The position numbers were made by a program, and so were the translations under genes. The notes beneath the pieces are model-generated. The model had not been told where the DNA came from. It saw only the letters and a program-made list of their open reading frames with translations, and made no database searches. From NCBI GenBank assembly GCA_043753995.1, contig JAYUVP010000117.1:1-54892 (forward strand): a DNA stretch of 54,892 bases, read 5' to 3'. The stretch is from Fibrobacterota bacterium (GTDB lineage Bacteria; Fibrobacterota; Fibrobacteria; UBA11236). This document shows, piece after piece, positions 45,491 to 54,780 of the stretch (within the stretch, counting starts at the first letter, position 1; every line of letters begins with the position of its first letter).

Positions 45491-46096
45491 ATGAAGGGCC
45501 ACTTGGCAAATTCCGCTGAACGCCTGGGGCCTCCCTCATCGCAAGCGCTCTGGCTGGCCTTGCTATTGCCTCCGGAAGCCTTGCTTCGCGAATGCCGCCG
45601 CGAAACCTATCAGGGCTCGGGAGCGGGCGGACAAAAGCGCAATCGAGTGCGATCGGGGGTGCGCCTAGTGCATACCACCACGGGACTGCGCGCCGAAAAT
45701 TGCGAGCACCGCGAGGCCTTGCGCAATGTCGAGGCCGCCACACGCGGGTTACGCCTGGCCATGGCCTTGACCTTGGGCGAGCTTGCGGCGGAGGCCAGCG
45801 GGGAGCTTCCCGGCTTCGCAGGCGCAGCACCGAAGGTGGATGGGCCTAACCCCGTGCTGGCAACAGCGCTTCGCACCCGCTTTCGCGTGGAGGCGAATTC
45901 GCATCATGAAGACTTTGCCGTGACCGCGGCCATGGCCCTGACGGCTTTGATGCAAAATCAAGGGCGCTTGGCCGACACTGCGAAGCAATTGGGCATTACA
46001 GGATCCGCGCTCACTCGGCATTTCAAGGCGGATAAGGCCATTTGGTCGGCTGTCCTGCGCTTGCGGGAAAAAGCGGGCTTGCCGGGTTTGAAGTGA
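45491..46096 (+). CDS. stand-alone GGQ (class I release-factor-like) domain protein
   Basis: YQGSGAGGQKRNRVRSGVRLVH..TGL, R....N...A..LR; C-terminal HTH-like A..LGIT.SAL. Confidence 0.85.
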   Translation: MKGHLANSAERLGPPSSQALWLALLLPPEALLRECRRETYQGSGAGGQKRNRVRSGVRLVHTTTGLRAENCEHREALRNVEAATRGLRLAMALTLGELAAEASGELPGFAGAAPKVDGPNPVLATALRTRFRVEANSHHEDFAVTAAMALTALMQNQGRLADTAKQLGITGSALTRHFKADKAIWSAVLRLREKAGLPGLK

Positions 46097-46107
46097 ACGG
46101 GACGACG

Positions 46108-46671
46108 ATGAATTTGTCGCAAGCGGTTCGAATCGTCGCGATCTTGAACTTCACCTATTTCTTCATCGAATTTGCAATTGGCCTGAAGATTGGATCGGTT
46201 TCGCTTTTCGCCGACAGTATTGATTTTCTTGAAGATACCCTAGTCAATATCCTGGTTTTAATCGCTTTGGGTTGGAGCGCGAAAAAGCGCGCATACGTCG
46301 GAATGTTTTTGGCATTCCTTTTACTGGTTCCTGGAATAGCCTTCCTCTGGACTGCATGGAACAAAATTCAAATGCCCATTCCGCCTTCTCCTCTTCCCCT
46401 GTCCCTGACCGGTTTAGGGGCCATGGCCGTGAATTTTTCTTGCGCCATGATTCTTATTCGCTTCCGCGAACATGGCGGAAGTTTATCCAAGGCTGCGTTT
46501 TTATCCGCGCGGAATGATGTGCTGGCGAATATCGCCATTGTCTTGGCGGGGCTTATAACCGTTTTTCTGCCTACCATTTGGCCGGATTTATTGGTGGGTC
46601 TCGCCATCGCAGCTATGAATGTGGATGCAGCGCACGATGTATGGAAAGCGGCCCGGCGAGAAAGGGGATAG
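46108..46671 (+). CDS. short CDF-type cation (Co/Zn/Cd) efflux membrane protein
   Basis: LN..YF.IEF, SVSLFADSIDFLED, AAFLSARND..AN, WPDL.VG. Confidence 0.88.
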   Translation: MNLSQAVRIVAILNFTYFFIEFAIGLKIGSVSLFADSIDFLEDTLVNILVLIALGWSAKKRAYVGMFLAFLLLVPGIAFLWTAWNKIQMPIPPSPLPLSLTGLGAMAVNFSCAMILIRFREHGGSLSKAAFLSARNDVLANIAIVLAGLITVFLPTIWPDLLVGLAIAAMNVDAAHDVWKAARRERG

Positions 46672-46695: not shown

Positions 46696-47931
46696 TCACC
46701 AAGCCCACTTCGCCGACGCACCCAGGGTATAGCCCTCGGGATGAACGCCAGACTCTTGTGACCTTTGCCAAAAGCGGCTGAGAAAGCCGCTCAAACCCAA
46801 AACGCGATCCCCGATGGGATGGCTCCAGCCGAGTTCGCCCGTGACCGTTTCTTGAGTCAGTCCCGCCAAGCGATAGTCTCCGCTGCGATACCCTTCGACC
46901 TTTGTGTAATGATGTTGCCAGAATTCCGCGGCGTCTTGCGAGGCATGGCGATGGCGCAAGGTGAGCAAAAAGCCATCGACGAATTGCCAACGCAAGGCGG
47001 TTTCGGGAATCCAGGCATGAAAATTCCAACTGTCATAATATGCCCCTTCACGATGATGCAAAGCCAAACCGCTCCAAAGAGAAAAGGACCATTCCAGCAC
47101 CGCACTGTGACGCCAGCGAGTGTCGGGGAGATTTTCGGTGAATTGCGTAGTGATGACCGTCGATCGCCGATAAGGGCTTTCCAAAGTGCCGGCCTGCACG
47201 GCAAGTCCATAAGTCGCCGAGACGACGCTGCGCCGTCCCATCACCTGAGAAATACCGAAACCGGCAAGATACCTTTGCTGGTTGGCGGGCCAGCGATCTT
47301 GCTCTCCCGGGGGAGGGACATGGGGTTCAATGCGATCCTGGCCGAAACCCAAATGCCCGGAAAGCATAAGGTTGCGCTGCCGCAACTCCACCGCAGCGTC
47401 CGCGATGCCGGTCATGGAGAAGTAATCATCCTCATGGGAAATACTGACCCGACCGCCCAAGCGATGGGGCTTATCGCCATGCCCGATTTGCCGAGCCAAT
47501 CCAACGCTGCCTTCATAGCGATGCTGCACCAAACCGCCATCTACGCTGGAAGCCCGCTGCGAAGCCCCGCTCACCGCATCGCTCCCGTTGGCTAAATCGG
47601 ATGAAGTCATGTCTACTTCATCGGGGTCGTCAGATGCGCCCACCGCGCGCTTGGCGGCATGCACATGGCCACCGCCCGTAGATCCATCGGGGGAGGGCAT
47701 CATCTCAATGCGATCCCAAAGTATATCGGCGATGAAAAGCCAATTCGGGGCGAGGCCCTGTTCCAGACCGACATTCGAAGTCAGCACCTGCATGCCACCG
47801 TGATCGCGATAGTGAAAGAGATCGAAATACGAACTACCGCCCGCTATGGACAAGGCCCTAGCGGTTAGCACCACCACGGTGGCGCGTCGTCCTGAGGCAT
47901 GCAGTAAATGGACCCACGCGCCAAGCCGCAT
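46696..47931 (-). CDS. DUF3570 family outer-membrane protein
   Basis: DAVSGAS, S.E.DY.S, G.L..PYR, E.LPD.R.R, YYDSW..A, D.RLA; start ATG 47931 overlaps the upstream TAA (TAATG). Confidence 0.82.
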   Translation of the reverse strand: MRLGAWVHLLHASGRRATVVVLTARALSIAGGSSYFDLFHYRDHGGMQVLTSNVGLEQGLAPNWLFIADILWDRIEMMPSPDGSTGGGHVHAAKRAVGASDDPDEVDMTSSDLANGSDAVSGASQRASSVDGGLVQHRYEGSVGLARQIGHGDKPHRLGGRVSISHEDDYFSMTGIADAAVELRQRNLMLSGHLGFGQDRIEPHVPPPGEQDRWPANQQRYLAGFGISQVMGRRSVVSATYGLAVQAGTLESPYRRSTVITTQFTENLPDTRWRHSAVLEWSFSLWSGLALHHREGAYYDSWNFHAWIPETALRWQFVDGFLLTLRHRHASQDAAEFWQHHYTKVEGYRSGDYRLAGLTQETVTGELGWSHPIGDRVLGLSGFLSRFWQRSQESGVHPEGYTLGASAKWAW

Positions 47932-49340
47932 TATTTCACCGGACCCGCAGGATGCGACGGGCCTACTTCGCTGCCCCAAGTTGCCAAAGTAGATGGACCC
48001 GTAACTACCAGTATTGTTTTGACGACTTTCCCTGTACCCACTTCAATCACCGTCACGGTATTGTCGAGATTATCTCCTTCGATCAGCCACTTACCGTCGC
48101 CAGTCAAGGTTTCGGGATGATGACCGCGGCTCTTGCCCACGGTGAGAGACGGCAATTGGATGGGGTTTTTCGGATCGCTGATATCGAAGACATGGCGTTG
48201 GCTGGAATAGCCTGCCGTGTCGCTATTGCCGCCCAAGACATAAATGCGATTCACCGAAGCCATCACGGTCATATGATCAAGGCCAGTATTCTTATGGACC
48301 TTGGGCAAACTGTCCTTGCAAGCGGATCCGGTTAGCAATACCGGAATCTGGTTCACCACACTGTCCAAACCGCCGTCAATCACGACGATTTGTCCCACTT
48401 GGCAAACCGCGCCGGGATGGGTGGCACTGCCTTCGCGAGGACTATTCTGCACGCTATAGACATAGTTGGTGCCAGCCAAAGCCTTGGTATAACCTCCACC
48501 TTTGCCGTGGGTATTCAGCAATTTGGCCTTAGGTGCGGCGGCATCTTGATCGATGCTCAAGATTTTGCCAATGCCGGTAAGACTGTGATACCCGCGTCCC
48601 GAAACCGGTGCCGTGGCCGCACCATGCGGAGAAAGTGAAACGCCTCCCGTGCCGCAGGTTTTTTCTATCGACGATCCGTCAAAGCCCAAGTCCAGCGAAG
48701 AAATATTGGCGACCTCGACGATATTCGCCGCATCACTGAAGTCGAGCACTTTAATCACTTCGGCGCAATCGCCTATATCCGATATCGAGACGCGCGCCTT
48801 GGTTTTGCTGAAGGCCGCCTTGTGATGGCCTATGCCGAGTGGGGCTTCACCGACATATTGCAAATACTTGTCACTACCCGGTTGGATGTCGATGAATAAG
48901 GCTCCATTGGTGGGCTTGGTGCCGCTACCGTCAAGCAAGGAAACGAAATATTGTTTGCCATTCAGAGGCGTCGTCAAAAAACCATGGGTGGGCTTGAGAC
49001 CGCCATTTTTGGGGGTGATGCGACTTTTTTCCAGCATGTCCTTGCCGTTAAAAACAATCACCTGATGTTTGGTGCCGCTATTGACGATCAGGGTCCCGTC
49101 CTCCAAAGCCGACATATCGGTCAAGCCGCCCACATCGGGGATTTCGCCGGCTTTTTGCTCGCCCGTAGTCAAATCATAAGCAGCAATTTTCGATGCGCCG
49201 CCCACATAAAGGGTGAGATGGGTATGGCTGGAATGATAGTGTCCTTCGTCGTCGTGGGCGTCGTTCATGCAGCCATAAAAACCAAGCGCTAGGATTGCAG
49301 CCACACCACCCGGCAATAAATAAAAACGAGATAATTTCAT
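47931..49340 (-). CDS. His-rich YncE/AztD-like beta-propeller lipoprotein
   Basis: Lipobox FYGC followed by AHDDEGHYHSSHTH; blade repeats (PTHG, GHH, SPHG, DNTVTVI.V.TGKVV.TI.V..GP); AGAGG SD. Confidence 0.75.
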   Translation of the reverse strand: MKLSRFYLLPGGVAAILALGFYGCMNDAHDDEGHYHSSHTHLTLYVGGASKIAAYDLTTGEQKAGEIPDVGGLTDMSALEDGTLIVNSGTKHQVIVFNGKDMLEKSRITPKNGGLKPTHGFLTTPLNGKQYFVSLLDGSGTKPTNGALFIDIQPGSDKYLQYVGEAPLGIGHHKAAFSKTKARVSISDIGDCAEVIKVLDFSDAANIVEVANISSLDLGFDGSSIEKTCGTGGVSLSPHGAATAPVSGRGYHSLTGIGKILSIDQDAAAPKAKLLNTHGKGGGYTKALAGTNYVYSVQNSPREGSATHPGAVCQVGQIVVIDGGLDSVVNQIPVLLTGSACKDSLPKVHKNTGLDHMTVMASVNRIYVLGGNSDTAGYSSQRHVFDISDPKNPIQLPSLTVGKSRGHHPETLTGDGKWLIEGDNLDNTVTVIEVGTGKVVKTILVVTGPSTLATWGSEVGPSHPAGPVK

Positions 49341-49363
49341 ATTAAACCTCTTGCGAATAGGGG

Positions 49364-49624
49364 TTAGTTCACGCATCCGCAGCCTCCACCGGGAGCACTG
49401 GCGGGAAGGTGTGAACCCGTCATGGTTTGAAAAACCTTGTCTTCATAGGATCGCAGCGATCTCGATCCCGCGAAAGGCGATTCCATGCAGGGCTGGGCAA
49501 GTCTCCCGCGCTCCGCAGGCTTTACCGTGGCGCAATGCATAAGCATGAAGCCGGCGGAAATCGGCAGAGCCAGGAATACGAATCGGGAAACGGCTTTCAC
49601 CGCACCCACCAGGGTAACGCGCAT
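49364..49624 (-). CDS. DUF4266 family small lipoprotein
   Basis: C.TVKP.ERG.LA..CM and terminal GGGCGC; GGAGG SD. Confidence 0.88.
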   Translation of the reverse strand: MRVTLVGAVKAVSRFVFLALPISAGFMLMHCATVKPAERGRLAQPCMESPFAGSRSLRSYEDKVFQTMTGSHLPASAPGGGCGCVN

Positions 49625-49747
49625 GGGACCTCCGCCACGGCCTAGGCCGGGGCAGACAGGGTTGAAAATGGGAAACGAATATTAAGGGCTCCGGAGCCCT
49701 CATGCCGTAGCAAAAACGGCAAATCGGCTTTGTAAAGCCGCGAGGAA

Positions 49748-50275
49748 TTAAGCCAAGAAAATGGGAACTTTGTCGGGCGCTTCGGGGCTAAAGCCCGCCC
49801 AACGCGACGAGGCGATTTCGTATTGCGCGGCCTGGCTTTCCCAAAGCATCGGGGCTTCGGTAAGACACAAGGCGTGCAGGGGCAGGCCGCCCATTTCCCA
49901 AGCAAAGTCTGCTTCGGAGCTACAGGCGCGATAGCAAGTCTCGCCCTTAAGTAAATCCGCCTTGGCTTCCGAATCTGCTTCGTGGTGACCGTGACTCTCC
50001 ACCACTTCCGGCGGACAATGGCAATTCGGCGGACAAGCCATTTCGGTATGATGCATGCAATGCCGCACCTGCTCGGCAGGCATTTCAATACGCGAGGCGG
50101 CTAAAGCTGTCTCTTTATCACGATGCGCATCGCGCCAGCTTTGAACCAAGGGTAAAACAGCTTGAAATACCAGCCAGGCATAGGCCACAAGCGCTACCGC
50201 ACTCAGGGTGCCGGAGCGTTGCCGCTGTAGGTAAAATCCACCCGAGGGGGAGTTCAAGACCAAAGGCCATCTCAT
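49748..50275 (-). CDS. Cys/His-rich membrane-anchored leader protein ending PDKVP
   Basis: TM with VAYAW; HCMHH, CPPNCHC, HGHH, CYRAC; ends PEAPDKVPIFLA; first gene before DUF4266. Confidence 0.72.
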   Translation of the reverse strand: MRWPLVLNSPSGGFYLQRQRSGTLSAVALVAYAWLVFQAVLPLVQSWRDAHRDKETALAASRIEMPAEQVRHCMHHTEMACPPNCHCPPEVVESHGHHEADSEAKADLLKGETCYRACSSEADFAWEMGGLPLHALCLTEAPMLWESQAAQYEIASSRWAGFSPEAPDKVPIFLA

Positions 50276-50402: not shown

Positions 50403-52298
50403 ATGTCGGCCAAGTTTCCCAAATCCAATTCCCGCTTATCCTTGGCCCTTAGCCTCGTTGCTCTGGCAGGCCTCAGCGCCTGCATGCGCGACACCATCAC
50501 CGGACCCACCGGGCCACGCTATTTCACCCGCGACACCCAGGGCTTGCCCGAAGCGCATGCCATGAAAATCCGCGAGGTAGGGTCAGGCGATTCCCTGAGG
50601 CTAGAAGCCGGACCCGCGAAGAAAAACATCAAGGGCATTGAAACTCGACTCCTGGTTTATGGCGGCAGCTTTCCCGGTCCCATCTTGCGGGTCAAGCAGG
50701 GCAGCCGCATCACTCTCAATCTTGTCAATCATACCGGAGCGCCCACCACCTTGCATCCCCATGGATTACGTCTCGATTATCGATTCGACGGCGTGCCCAA
50801 TTACACGCAAGCGCCTATCGCTCCCGGCGATTCCTTTGTTTATCAACTCGACTTTCCCGATCCGGGACTCTTTTGGTATCACCCGCATGTGCGTGGCGAT
50901 TATCAAGGCGATCTCGGACTCTATGGTGCCATCTGGGTCATTCCCAAGGACTCGGCTTATTGGGGCGGGTCGGTCGATCAGGAGCAAATCCTCATCCTCG
51001 ACGACATGCTGCTCGACAGCGGCGGCATCGCTCCTTATCCAACGGAGGGGTCCGATCATTCCCTCATGGGTCGCTTCGGCAATACCTTGCTTATCAACGG
51101 TGAAACCGACTTTCGCCTGCAGGGAAAACATTTCGAACGCGTCCGCTTTTTCATACTCAATGCCGCCAATGTGCGGGCTTTCAATTTCAGTTTAAGCAGT
51201 GCCTTGATGCGAGTCATCGGATCGGATTGCGGACGTGCCCATAGCATCAGCTTAGCTAACTCCATACTCATCACTCCCGCCGAGCGCAGTGTCGTCGAAG
51301 TCCTTTTTCTTTCTCGCGACGAATATCTCATCGAGCATCAGAGCCCGGTGAAATACCTGACCACCGGCCCCTATTATGCACCCTATGGATCGGCCACTGC
51401 CCCCTTTCCCGAAAATTATCCCGTCATGGGCCGCATTCTCATCGATGCCGATTCCGCCAAATCAGGTCATAACCGTGATTTTTATGACTATCAAAATTTC
51501 TCGAATTTCCTCCACGACTATCCCGTCACGAATTATCAGCAAATCGATTCCGCCATTCAGCAAAATCCGGACTTCACCATGGAATTATCCATTGCCATGG
51601 ACCACAGCACCTTGCCCATGTCCATGATGCCGACGCCCGTTCAGGACACCGTCGCCCCAACCCCATTCCCTCAATCGCCCACCGCTTTCCATGATGCTCA
51701 AGTTCCAGGGGGTAACCCCAAGGTGGCCCCCTATTTTATGCCCTATGTCCCACGTGATTCCCTGGGCCGCCCCATAGCCGCGGGATCCATAGGCGAAGTG
51801 ACGCCCTTGGGCATTCGCCGCGTCGCGGCGCAGGCCAAGACCCATCATCATGGCAGTGCGCCCGCTCTCGCCAAGGCCGCGCATAATGATCCTTTCGGAC
51901 AAGGCATCGATTGGTATGACGATATGCCCGAAATGAATGCCGCCAGTAATACCGGCAATGTCCGCTGGATCATGCGCGACTTTCAAACCGGCCTCGAAAA
52001 CATGTCGGTGCGGTGGCGATTGCGCCAGGGCCGATATTATCACGTACGCATTTGGAATATCGCCGATCATATGCACCCCATGGCTCACTTCATTCACTTC
52101 CACGGACAACGCTCCCTATTGCTCGGAACCAATGGCGTGCCCGAAGCCTCCCTGGCTTGGAAAGACACCTTTCTCGTCGGCATGGGCAAGGTCGTGGATA
52201 TTTTAATAGAAGCCAGCAATCCCGGTGATTGGATGGCCCATTGCCACATCGCCGAGCATGCCGAAGCCAGCATGATGACTTATTTCCGGGTGGACTGA
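50403..52298 (+). CDS. multicopper oxidase, lipoprotein
   Basis: All four Cu motifs (HPHG, WYHPH, HFIHFHG, HCHIAEHAEASM); lipobox LSAC. Confidence 0.95.
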   Translation: MSAKFPKSNSRLSLALSLVALAGLSACMRDTITGPTGPRYFTRDTQGLPEAHAMKIREVGSGDSLRLEAGPAKKNIKGIETRLLVYGGSFPGPILRVKQGSRITLNLVNHTGAPTTLHPHGLRLDYRFDGVPNYTQAPIAPGDSFVYQLDFPDPGLFWYHPHVRGDYQGDLGLYGAIWVIPKDSAYWGGSVDQEQILILDDMLLDSGGIAPYPTEGSDHSLMGRFGNTLLINGETDFRLQGKHFERVRFFILNAANVRAFNFSLSSALMRVIGSDCGRAHSISLANSILITPAERSVVEVLFLSRDEYLIEHQSPVKYLTTGPYYAPYGSATAPFPENYPVMGRILIDADSAKSGHNRDFYDYQNFSNFLHDYPVTNYQQIDSAIQQNPDFTMELSIAMDHSTLPMSMMPTPVQDTVAPTPFPQSPTAFHDAQVPGGNPKVAPYFMPYVPRDSLGRPIAAGSIGEVTPLGIRRVAAQAKTHHHGSAPALAKAAHNDPFGQGIDWYDDMPEMNAASNTGNVRWIMRDFQTGLENMSVRWRLRQGRYYHVRIWNIADHMHPMAHFIHFHGQRSLLLGTNGVPEASLAWKDTFLVGMGKVVDILIEASNPGDWMAHCHIAEHAEASMMTYFRVD

Positions 52299-53055: not shown

Positions 53056-54333
53056 TCAAGGCGCATCCAAGGGGCTGATCACTCGCCCCGATAATGCCTG
53101 CAGGGCATGGGTATAAATCATGGTCGTCGAAACATCTTCATGCCCCAACATTTCCTGCACGGTGCGAATATCATAGCCCATTTGCAATAGGTGAGTGGCA
53201 TAGCTATGCCTCAGGGTATGAGCCGAAACGCGCTTGGTGATTTCGCTCAGCCCAACAGCTCTTTTAATTTCTTTTTGTATGCTGCTCTCGTGGAGATGAA
53301 AACGCCGCATCTTCCCATCCTCTTCTGTCTTGACCAACTTCACCGACGGGAATACCCATTGCCATGGCCACTCCTTGGCTGCACTTACATACTTCCTCGA
53401 TAGAGCCGGCGCCAGCAAAACCCCTTCAAAGCCCGCACGACAATCCGCTTCATACAATCGCCGTAATCGCCCAAATTGCTCGGTCAATAAAGGCAACAAG
53501 GTTTTCGGAAGCGGGAGGCTGCGACTTTTATTTCCCTTTCCATTAAACACTTTCAATCCTCCCCCAGCCAAATCAATATCCTGAATCCTCAAGGTCAAAG
53601 TCTCATTCAGTCTCAATCCGCACCCATACATCAACTGAGTAAAGAGCCGGAACGTAGGGTCCACCTTGGATAGCAAAAGCTGGACTTCACCACGACTCAA
53701 GACGCTAGGAACCTCATGCCGCCGCTTCGCCCGCGCCGTTTGCTTTAATCCCTCGAAATCACCCCCCAACACATGGGTGTAAAAAAACAGCAAGGCGCTG
53801 AAGGCCTGATTTTGCGAAGATGCCGAAACGCCTTGCTCAGTCGCCAGGTGCACCAAAAAATCCTGCGCATCCCCAGCGACCAAATCCCCCAATTCCCGAT
53901 AATCCAAATACCTTCCAAACCAAGCCACCCAATACCGATAACTCTTCAACGTCTTGGGTGAATAATGTCGCAGTTGAATTTCCTCCGTCAATTTCGACAT
54001 TGCTTCAACCCAATTCTTGGGGCACAGAATCTTCAACTCGCGAGACGGGCTTTCCACAGCAACCTCATTGAGGCCCTCCACTTCTTCTCCCAAGCTCTTC
54101 CAATAAAAAAAGATCGCTCTCCCCGCCTGCCCCCTAAGAAAATCCGTCTTCCTGGACTTTCTTAATTCATCTAAGAAAAAATCCATCGAGACTCTTTCCC
54201 TTATACCCAATCCAGCACCACGGCAAAAATCAATATACCGATTCACCCAATTGATATAATAGGACTGCTCCGTTGCTCCCTTCACCCCATGACGACTTAA
54301 AACCTCCCCATACTCCACCCGACCCTCTTCCAT
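53056..54333 (-). CDS. intI: integron integrase, long form
   Basis: Tyrosine-recombinase residues (YGCGLR, GKG.K, HTLRH, LGH, TMIY) plus the integron-specific insert ALSRKY...EWPWQWVFPS and RRFH; start uncertain (ATG 54333 or TTG 54435). Confidence 0.95.
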   Translation of the reverse strand: MEEGRVEYGEVLSRHGVKGATEQSYYINWVNRYIDFCRGAGLGIRERVSMDFFLDELRKSRKTDFLRGQAGRAIFFYWKSLGEEVEGLNEVAVESPSRELKILCPKNWVEAMSKLTEEIQLRHYSPKTLKSYRYWVAWFGRYLDYRELGDLVAGDAQDFLVHLATEQGVSASSQNQAFSALLFFYTHVLGGDFEGLKQTARAKRRHEVPSVLSRGEVQLLLSKVDPTFRLFTQLMYGCGLRLNETLTLRIQDIDLAGGGLKVFNGKGNKSRSLPLPKTLLPLLTEQFGRLRRLYEADCRAGFEGVLLAPALSRKYVSAAKEWPWQWVFPSVKLVKTEEDGKMRRFHLHESSIQKEIKRAVGLSEITKRVSAHTLRHSYATHLLQMGYDIRTVQEMLGHEDVSTTMIYTHALQALSGRVISPLDAP

Positions 54334-54780
54334 CACCGAAGCCTGCGCCAAAATCGCCGGCCTTCCCCCTCGTTTCTTCCTACCCCAATACACCGATTTG
54401 ACTATTACCACAAGCCCCTCCGTCTTTGCTTTCAAAGTTCAAAATCAATCAAGGCAGATTTTGTCCCTTTTGTTGTGACGGCCAACACCCATTCCCGACC
54501 AAATACCCATTGGGATATTCATTTCGATCCCAACCGAACCCGCTAACACCCTCTCCACCTATCAAAAACAGCGGAATTCTATGCTTTCAGTGAATGAGGG
54601 ACGCCTCGCCTAAAGACGGGACACCCCGAGACCAAGCTCACCACGAAGTCTATGGTTAGATTTTATCACGGAGCTCGCACCAATCAGTTTATCCCAATAT
54701 GACGAATCTCATCCTGACAAAACAGAATCAACCCCGCGTTTTTAAGCAATTCACAACCCACCCATTTTGGCATAGGTTCC

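Follow-up and report, generated by a model that had tools for sequence, protein, structure and literature searches.

We describe here a group of three genes, encoding a DUF4266 protein, a beta-propeller and a DUF3570 outer-membrane barrel, which lie together on the minus strand of a 54,892-nucleotide stretch of DNA from a Fibrobacterota bacterium (contig JAYUVP010000117.1, hereafter C117; the whole stretch is referred to as the window). The genome carrying it, G000, is 5.2 Mb in size and 97% complete. The three genes are a distinct, conserved subtype of DUF3570/DUF4266 module without TlpA, and a real, apparently undescribed variant of that known system; they occur together in many bacteria of soil and water. 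As for its role, we tentatively favour the capture of scarce copper at the outer membrane, with metal-dependent regulation and a plug-less barrel that works independently of TonB, while the narrower version, a reductive copper importer driven by flavin, is doubtful.

The coupling of the three genes is as tight as the original prediction had stated, with a gap of 23 nt between DUF4266 and the propeller and a TAATG overlap between the propeller and DUF3570. The DUF4266 protein, whose C-terminus reads GGGCGCVN, scores 32.3 bits against PF14086 (cut-off 27), and the DUF3570 protein scores 92.3 bits against PF12094 (cut-off 25). We further collected relatives of the propeller, obtaining 48 matches in the protein database, 43 loci in species genomes and 156 loci in metagenomes, the best 80 of which were used; the protein representatives at E up to 1e-30 numbered 103, many of them repeat proteins. 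Then 123 propeller loci were scanned with home-made profiles and merged at 95% identity into 86 clusters. Many metagenome loci are short, so that counts of absent neighbours are lower bounds.

As a result, two types of cluster were recognized. In type A, with 35 of the 86 clusters (those with titles come from Fibrobacteria and Myxococcota), DUF4266 and/or DUF3570 adjoins the propeller: DUF4266 is found in 33 clusters, DUF3570 in 30, ApbE in 3 and TlpA in none, and the view that the window holds an atypical locus rather than a routine canonical one is thereby upheld. Further neighbours of type A are a barrel-like gene starting with a Cys pair (8 clusters), a RegB-like gene (6) and a TonB receptor (6). 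Type B, with 41 clusters (Alphaproteobacteria where titled), was defined by a DUF2946-like leader (present in 32) or a small helical protein with three Cys (present in 38), so only its PCuAC and SCO counts, given below, are independent. Ten clusters belong to neither type and none to both. In a quick tree, from which no order of events was drawn, type B falls on one side of a moderately supported branch (Shimodaira-Hasegawa-like approximate likelihood ratio test, SH-aLRT, 88), and the window pairs with locus L088. Among 296 genomes of its own phylum, the propeller is present in eight, all from one family.

The model of the DUF3570 protein (predicted local distance difference test, pLDDT, 80) has 16 strands, counted from the listed elements, and no plug, and no Pfam match to a Plug domain was found in the protein. 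Its fold matches are PgaA, PelB, BcsC, CymA and OmpG (Z 16–19). A TonB-dependent transporter would have 22 strands and a plug, so the model agrees with the TonB-independent type of barrel that had been proposed. The DAVSGAS motif and the HVH/acidic insert ahead of it are both present in the protein as first described; they share the loop between strands 3 and 4, where pLDDT falls below 50 at residues 84–124, and this loop probably lies on the outer face, judging from the number of strands and from the aromatic residue at the C-terminus. The motif recognized by ApbE is defined as D-x-x-[S/T]-G-A-[S/T] (PMC12052999), and Ser124 is the predicted acceptor of flavin mononucleotide (FMN). Its Asp, Ala and Ser are invariant in 22 aligned sequences, and the canonical Gly is kept in 8 of 19 module barrels, the window included, with Ser in its place in the other 11. 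The motif of L040, DVISSAS, is of the SSAS type. All 19 aligned module barrels carry a single flavin motif, against two in the paralogues on C317 and C349, and 18 of the 19 have 2–6 His right before it (0–2 in three paralogues). A characterised DUF3570 protein has two flavin sites, both modified (PMC8238504). The C-x-C of DUF4266 reads CGC in 38 of 39 tails from related loci and CAC in one.

It had also been observed that neither ApbE nor TlpA lies near the module. This holds locally, by the neighbour counts above, and fails for the genome, since both are encoded elsewhere: outside the window locus G000 holds one apbE, found on C199 (C199:2358-3413) when it was looked for as the original prediction had suggested, one DsbD and two TlpA genes. 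Moreover, G000 has four DUF4266/DUF3570 pairs, two of them adjoined by a TlpA-like gene and none by apbE (one of the contigs is only 3.9 kb), so the missing local apbE is nothing special. Our survey of ApbE covered 29 genome entries, or 24 genomes after removal of five duplicates, and ApbE was found in 20 of the 20 genomes with a whole or partial module; in two of the genomes surveyed it sits in another context. Thus the argument that the module had been repurposed because ApbE is missing fails. G249 has a lone propeller together with ApbE and other DUF3570 genes, and in the genome search of G315–G317, which also have a lone propeller, neither ApbE nor DUF3570 was found. ApbE occurs in about half of bacteria (PMC8238504) and kin genomes are not independent, so the 20 of 20 is consistent with flavinylation and is no proof of it. 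The three extra pairs of G000 (C337:4680-8858, C317:35378-37507 and C349:291-2715) each have a protein with a CxxCH haem motif upstream, and the C337 pair is further accompanied by TlpA, a large lipoprotein and two genes of barrel-like type. G000 further contains three genes for haem-copper oxidase subunit I.

The propeller contains 19 His and a Cys24 behind a hydrophobic signal. It had been called His-rich, and the description suits the blades, where the conserved His sit; the N-terminal His tract is not conserved. Its AlphaFold model (pLDDT 91) consists of the propeller only, with no cupredoxin domain. In fold searches NirF (Z 29.2), AztD (6ck1; Z 28.6; root-mean-square deviation 3.3 over 328 aligned residues) and cd1 (Z 28.4) tie, with WD40 proteins also level, so fold alone cannot decide the family. 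HHalign of 104 propeller sequences against 17 AztD sequences gave a probability of 96.1 and E 3e-9 over 372 columns at 21% identity, a comparison made with no unrelated-propeller control. The alignment runs end to end, and the RPVH, GHH and C..PHG of the propeller match the AztD motifs of His124, His167, and His218 with Cys214, the AztD numbering having been placed on L168 by motif spacing. His119, His172, His173 and His239 are conserved in 97, 98, 103 and 98 of the 104 sequences, respectively. A seven-His cluster like CuZ of NosZ was considered and rejected, as only four His are conserved family-wide. Up to seven blade His occur in the barrel-linked clade: His356 is found in 29 of 33 barrel-linked sequences vs 0 of 20 of alphaproteobacterial type, and His407 and His408 are usually present in type-A propellers.

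Searches of simpler kinds were weak. The window propeller had no match to NF038015 (AztD; family cut-off 400 bits) at E 0.1, and one of 47 relatives matched it at E 0.006. The best NCBIfam matches were L-NosZ (E 7e-6), NosZ (3e-3) and methanethiol oxidase (8e-4), and with such family scores and no CuA domain the propeller does not group with NosZ or L-NosZ. Single-sequence searches of the PDB returned no match, the profile search of the PDB only generic YVTN-type propellers, and the ESM Atlas only unnamed clusters; comparison with AztD from a single-sequence template gave a probability of 4%, and the propeller profile scores AztD sequences at 26 bits or less (E 0.34 at library size), below plain search significance. 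The case for AztD homology therefore comes from the motifs and from the match of profile to profile; together these suggest that the propeller is a remote homologue of AztD, a predicted relative of metal-holding type outside the AztD family proper. The idea of an AztD-like chaperone survives in part. The relationship and the residues of the central metal site are kept, while the H-G-D-H-x-D hairpin of AztD site 2 is absent, with a 9-residue gap opposite it in HHalign; since this is the site that hands over zinc, the chaperone mechanism of AztD is not transferable.

A Cys-rich leader heads the unit, and its anatomy resembles that of a metal-sensing upstream open reading frame (ORF), in line with the metal-type leader originally proposed. 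No Pfam match to the window leader was found. A profile built from seven leaders matched in 12 of the 32 genomes of the family, whose leaders share about 14–26% identity with the window copy, invariant Cys and a terminal K-[IV]-P-I (KIPI). The last conserved Cys lies 49–52 aa from the KIPI Lys in 18 of 18 leaders (51 aa, Cys118 to Lys169, in the window), a set gathered in part with the leader profile, so that equal spacing may have been favoured, and the previous Cys cluster is a variable 16–33 aa away. DUF2946-like leaders at propeller loci have a Cys spacing of 42–54 aa, and CruR requires a fixed spacing from CXXC to RAPP (PMC9426467). We therefore class the leader, on this anatomy, as a predicted metal-sensing upstream ORF of KIPI type. 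A Cys-rich leader with its Cys 48–54 aa ahead of a PP or KIPI terminus was found at 15 of 38 barrel-linked loci, and at 0 of 38 when the opposite strand was read as a control; the loci were not dereplicated, and the criteria had been made stricter after a first, looser set gave 14 vs 5 of 35. In myxococcal module loci the Cys-rich leaders end in PP, and other KIPI leaders (L077–L083, L087) head a TonB receptor, barrel-like genes starting with a Cys pair, or a His-lipoprotein with a cytochrome pair. Among the language-model neighbours of the leader, which are a lead only, are CzcI and a cluster named DUF2946, at 0.93–0.94 and with low shared counts. The spacer behind the leader is C-rich in 16 of 18 cases vs 263 of 450 control gaps, weakly like the Rho control of CruR, and its folding energy in the window does not go beyond that of shuffles (z -0.77). 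Pairing of the leader 3' end with the next ribosome-binding site was rejected, as pairs from the same locus did no better than cross pairs (p~0.1, n=18). The Pro codon of the KIPI motif is CCC in 16 of 18 leaders vs 126 of 277 other Pro codons of the same genes, which hints at constraint at the nucleotide level.

Compared with the clusters of Meheust et al. 2021, which combine ApbE, DUF3570, a thioredoxin-like protein and DUF4266, with or without DsbD (PMC8238504), the window shares the C-x-C tail of DUF4266, the ApbE motif of DUF3570, and ApbE, TlpA and DsbD somewhere in the genome. In contrast, its operon has neither thioredoxin nor ApbE; its barrel carries a single motif rather than two, and a His-rich insert takes the place of the first; between DUF4266 and DUF3570 stands a propeller related to AztD, and a Cys-rich leader precedes them. 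The metal hint in the accessible part of that paper is to iron only (VIT1 in 25 clusters). With AztD the propeller shares its fold, the His triad of the central pore, an aligned Cys before the third His and remote homology from end to end; unlike AztD, it has about 21% identity to that protein, no site-2 HGDHxD hairpin, a predicted lipid anchor, extra blade His and two further Cys pairs, and it is partnered by a barrel or by PCuAC/SCO in place of AztABC. Like CruR and CutF, the leader comes first in its unit, has a hydrophobic N-terminus and Cys at a fixed distance of some 50 residues from a C-terminal Pro motif, is followed by a spacer of 50–230 nt and heads transport genes, whereas it has no detectable homology to them, a larger Cys cluster and a terminal K-[IV]-P-I instead of RAPP/PP. 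CutF-like surveys, as far as their accessible parts describe them, filtered on PP and <150 aa, and would therefore miss KIPI leaders. Like the importers OprC and CrtA/BfrG (PMC12914433), the module would provide outer-membrane entry for copper, in a leader-controlled operon linked to oxidase supply; those importers depend on TonB, unlike the modelled plug-less 16-strand barrel with its flavin motif. The accessible DUF3570/DUF4266 literature (PMC8238504, bioRxiv 2023.06.07.544157) holds no propeller-containing or copper-linked form, and supplementary file 1 of PMC8238504 may list some. Literature on flavinylation, outer membrane and copper, and on AztD and copper homologues, mostly outside subscription journals, yielded nothing on the module.

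In the reading that we favour, ApbE encoded in trans would attach FMN to Ser124 in the periplasm ahead of barrel folding, and metal would be bound, and probably reduced, without TonB by the barrel, which would carry one covalent flavin on its His-rich outer loop. In the reductive version, the FMN on the loop of this porin-like barrel would reduce His-bound Cu(II) and pass copper to the propeller, with KIPI leaders in control as a new class of ribosome-stalling metal sensor. The propeller would dock on the barrel, hold metal in its central His site and store or buffer it for cuproenzyme assembly, and the C-x-C tail of DUF4266 would pass on electrons from the DsbD/TlpA pool or carry Cu(I). The leader would stall ribosomes at KVPI, read metal through the Cys about 50 residues upstream like CruR/CutF, and so switch the operon. 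That the metal is copper is suggested by the surroundings of the propeller family. DUF2946/CruR is the first gene of copper operons that contain PCuAC, Sco and YcnI (PMC9426467), and type-B clusters contain PCuAC in 23 of 41 and SCO in 5 of 41 (home-made profiles with Pfam confirmation), the former count being inflated by near-copies and falling to 3 of 9 clusters at 80% identity. One barrel-linked locus, L020, carries DUF1775, which we take to be the copper-binding domain of YcnI. The Cys-rich leaders of barrel-linked loci, the near-constant spacing within KIPI leaders, and the haem-copper oxidases and DsbD of G000 also count in favour.

Besides this inflated PCuAC count, several points weigh against the copper reading. 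First, the direct link to copper chaperones is from the sister clade: DUF3570 was not found in any of the 16 type-B genomes searched, nor PCuAC or SCO at any barrel-linked locus. Second, the leader is lacking at 23 of 38 module loci, its criteria were tightened as mentioned above, and no homology of leaders to DUF2946 was detected (PF11162 in 0 of 15 at E up to 1; HHalign 3%). CruR represses and CutF induces, in opposite directions, and CutF-like leaders are not all copper-specific (both PMC9973294). Third, AztD, the closest characterised relative of the propeller, binds zinc, and transfers it only from site 2 (Neupane et al. 2019, PMC6689063); directly upstream of the type-B operon, the alphaproteobacterial loci L037 (5556-7368) and L039 have ZigA and a regulator like Zur, HupE/UreJ lies upstream at L118, and L090 has a P1B ATPase of unclear metal. 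Finally, Ser replaces the Gly of the flavin motif in the 11 barrels noted above, and a change of this Gly halves flavinylation of a model substrate (PMC12052999). The TonB receptors next to module loci were considered as OprC and rejected, as they do not match it, which likewise does not help the copper reading.

Much of the third point would equally serve zinc, or nickel or cobalt, taken up by the same architecture, with flavin freeing the metal from a chelate or playing a side role. The AztD site-1 triad is retained, the His-only ligands fit Zn, Ni and Cu(II), and the leaders leave other metals room. We consider this unlikely, as PCuAC and SCO are far commoner than zinc genes around the propeller family, and no AztABC-type zinc ABC transporter was found at the window locus or among recurrent neighbours. 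Moreover, the leaders are Cys-rich while the Ni/Co-linked CutF-like ones in the accessible part of PMC9973294 are His-only, and reduction is not needed for zinc.

The propeller may instead be a metalloenzyme or a cofactor-binding client such as NirF, cd1 or N2O reductase, with the barrel and DUF4266 feeding it electrons and the leader matching its synthesis to metal supply. The tied fold scores suit this equally well, as do the extra blade His and the missing transfer hairpin, the haem-motif protein filling the neighbouring slot in the other DUF3570 loci of G000, the RegB/RegA-like redox regulators that flank 6 of 35 clusters, and the PCuAC and SCO of the sister clade, which could load the propeller. 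Nevertheless, L-NosZ, NosZ and methanethiol oxidase were matched only weakly at family level, it is AztD that the profile matches from end to end with identity at motif level, and no substrate or pathway genes were found among recurrent neighbours of propeller loci; such an enzyme thus also seems improbable.

The leader, the multicopper oxidase and the CDF cation exporter do lie around the module where the original prediction placed them, and the two flanking genes had been taken as evidence for metal. This flank argument is weak and was dropped as functional evidence, because among the 123 loci examined the CDF exporter adjoins no other module locus and the oxidase flank recurs only at L088, the closest relative. 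The same flanks, together with the fact that CutF switches on an oxidase (PMC9973294), would favour a device for detoxification or buffering, induced by excess copper in the manner of CutF and partnered by the divergent oxidase. There is little to recommend it, since the other module loci have no oxidase, the genes behind the other KIPI leaders, a TonB receptor and barrel-like ones, look like import, and the C-rich spacer weakly resembles the Rho control of CruR. A vestigial flavin site, in a barrel that is simply a metal-selective porin gated by a His-rich loop, as the loss of one of two canonical motifs, the Gly to Ser change and the uncoupling of ApbE and TlpA from the operon might indicate, is very improbable, given the invariant acceptor Ser, Asp and Ala, the perfect motif of the window, and ApbE in every module genome and adjoining three distinct loci (two with motif SSAS or related, partly scored).

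The features of the window are compiled in Table 1.

Table 1. Features of the module and its surroundings in the window
Feature	Position	Strand	Basis
Cys-rich leader ORF, 175 aa, hydrophobic N-terminus, Cys/His cluster, C-terminal PDKVPI	49748-50275	-	ORF translation
Leader-to-DUF4266 spacer, 123 nt	49625-49747	-	
Perfect hairpin inside the leader-to-DUF4266 spacer	49683-49702	-	
DUF4266, small exported protein, probably a lipoprotein	49364-49624	-	PF14086, E 1.9e-7
DUF4266 tail GGGCGC (C-x-C)	49373-49390	-	Sequence
Beta-propeller, 469 aa, predicted lipoprotein (Cys24), predicted remote AztD homologue	47931-49340	-	AlphaFold, fold searches, HHalign
Propeller His119, counterpart of AztD site-1 His124	48984-48986	-	Alignment
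Propeller His172-His173, counterpart of AztD HH motif with site-1 His167	48822-48827	-	Alignment
Propeller His239, counterpart of AztD site-1 His218	48624-48626	-	Alignment
Propeller stretch with extra blade His356, His407 and His408	48117-48275	-	Alignment
DUF3570 outer-membrane beta-barrel, predicted 16 strands, no plug	46696-47931	-	PF12094, E 3.9e-26; model
DUF3570 long loop, strands 3-4, residues 78-133 (HVH, acidic run, motif)	47533-47700	-	Model
DAVSGAS, predicted FMN acceptor Ser124	47560-47580	-	Full match to D-x-x-[S/T]-G-A-[S/T]
Multicopper oxidase, divergent flank outside the conserved module	50403-52298	+	Pfam
CDF cation exporter, convergent flank	46042-46671		Pfam

A promoter scan of the window was at chance (3 vs 2.9), and so was a terminator scan (6 vs 5.1). 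Near the contig end lies a putative integrase-like ORF of the tyrosine recombinase type (53056-54435), so labelled from motifs; its G+C and that of the CDF gene are lower, at 0.50 and 0.49 vs 0.55. A protein with an RF-1 domain and a weak C-terminal helix-turn-helix (45491-46096), possibly a peptidyl-tRNA hydrolase of ribosome-rescue type, sits near this operon with its predicted stalling leader. The multicopper oxidase of L088 (2051-3946) ends in QGHVTEPIEAM and may have lost its copper sites, to judge by its sequence, while the window copy keeps an intact HCHIAEHAEASM copper-ligand motif.

Other loci also provided observations. The type-B operon (L027–L049 and many of L103–L167), which is apparently undescribed, comprises a DUF2946-like leader, often PCuAC, the propeller, and a helical exported protein of about 105 aa that begins with A-C-D, has three Cys and has no Pfam match, with SCO sometimes next. 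A RegB/RegA-like two-component pair adjoins the propeller or module at L015, L018, L029, L030, L050 and L089, several of them myxobacterial, with scores below the family cut-off. In a Leptospiraceae genome, the gene behind a distant propeller relative (L052:9177-10352) encodes a Met-rich protein (28 Met, 10 His) that matched nothing in Pfam or NCBIfam. In the assemblies L038, L044 and L050 the reading frame of the propeller or of DUF3570 is broken, by assembly error or decay.

DUF3570 is a proven ApbE substrate without a known function, and the entry of copper through the outer membrane is poorly understood apart from a few TonB-dependent receptors. The subtype described here gives DUF3570 a concrete ligand hypothesis, with a soluble propeller partner, a single acceptor Ser and the leader spacing as handles. 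It also widens the relations of AztD to a new, predicted family of propellers and points to KIPI leaders as a class overlooked by PP-based surveys. If the reductive copper importer proves true, the DUF3570/DUF4266 system would gain its first function, and Alphaproteobacteria would have a second copper operon, as yet undescribed, that employs this propeller.

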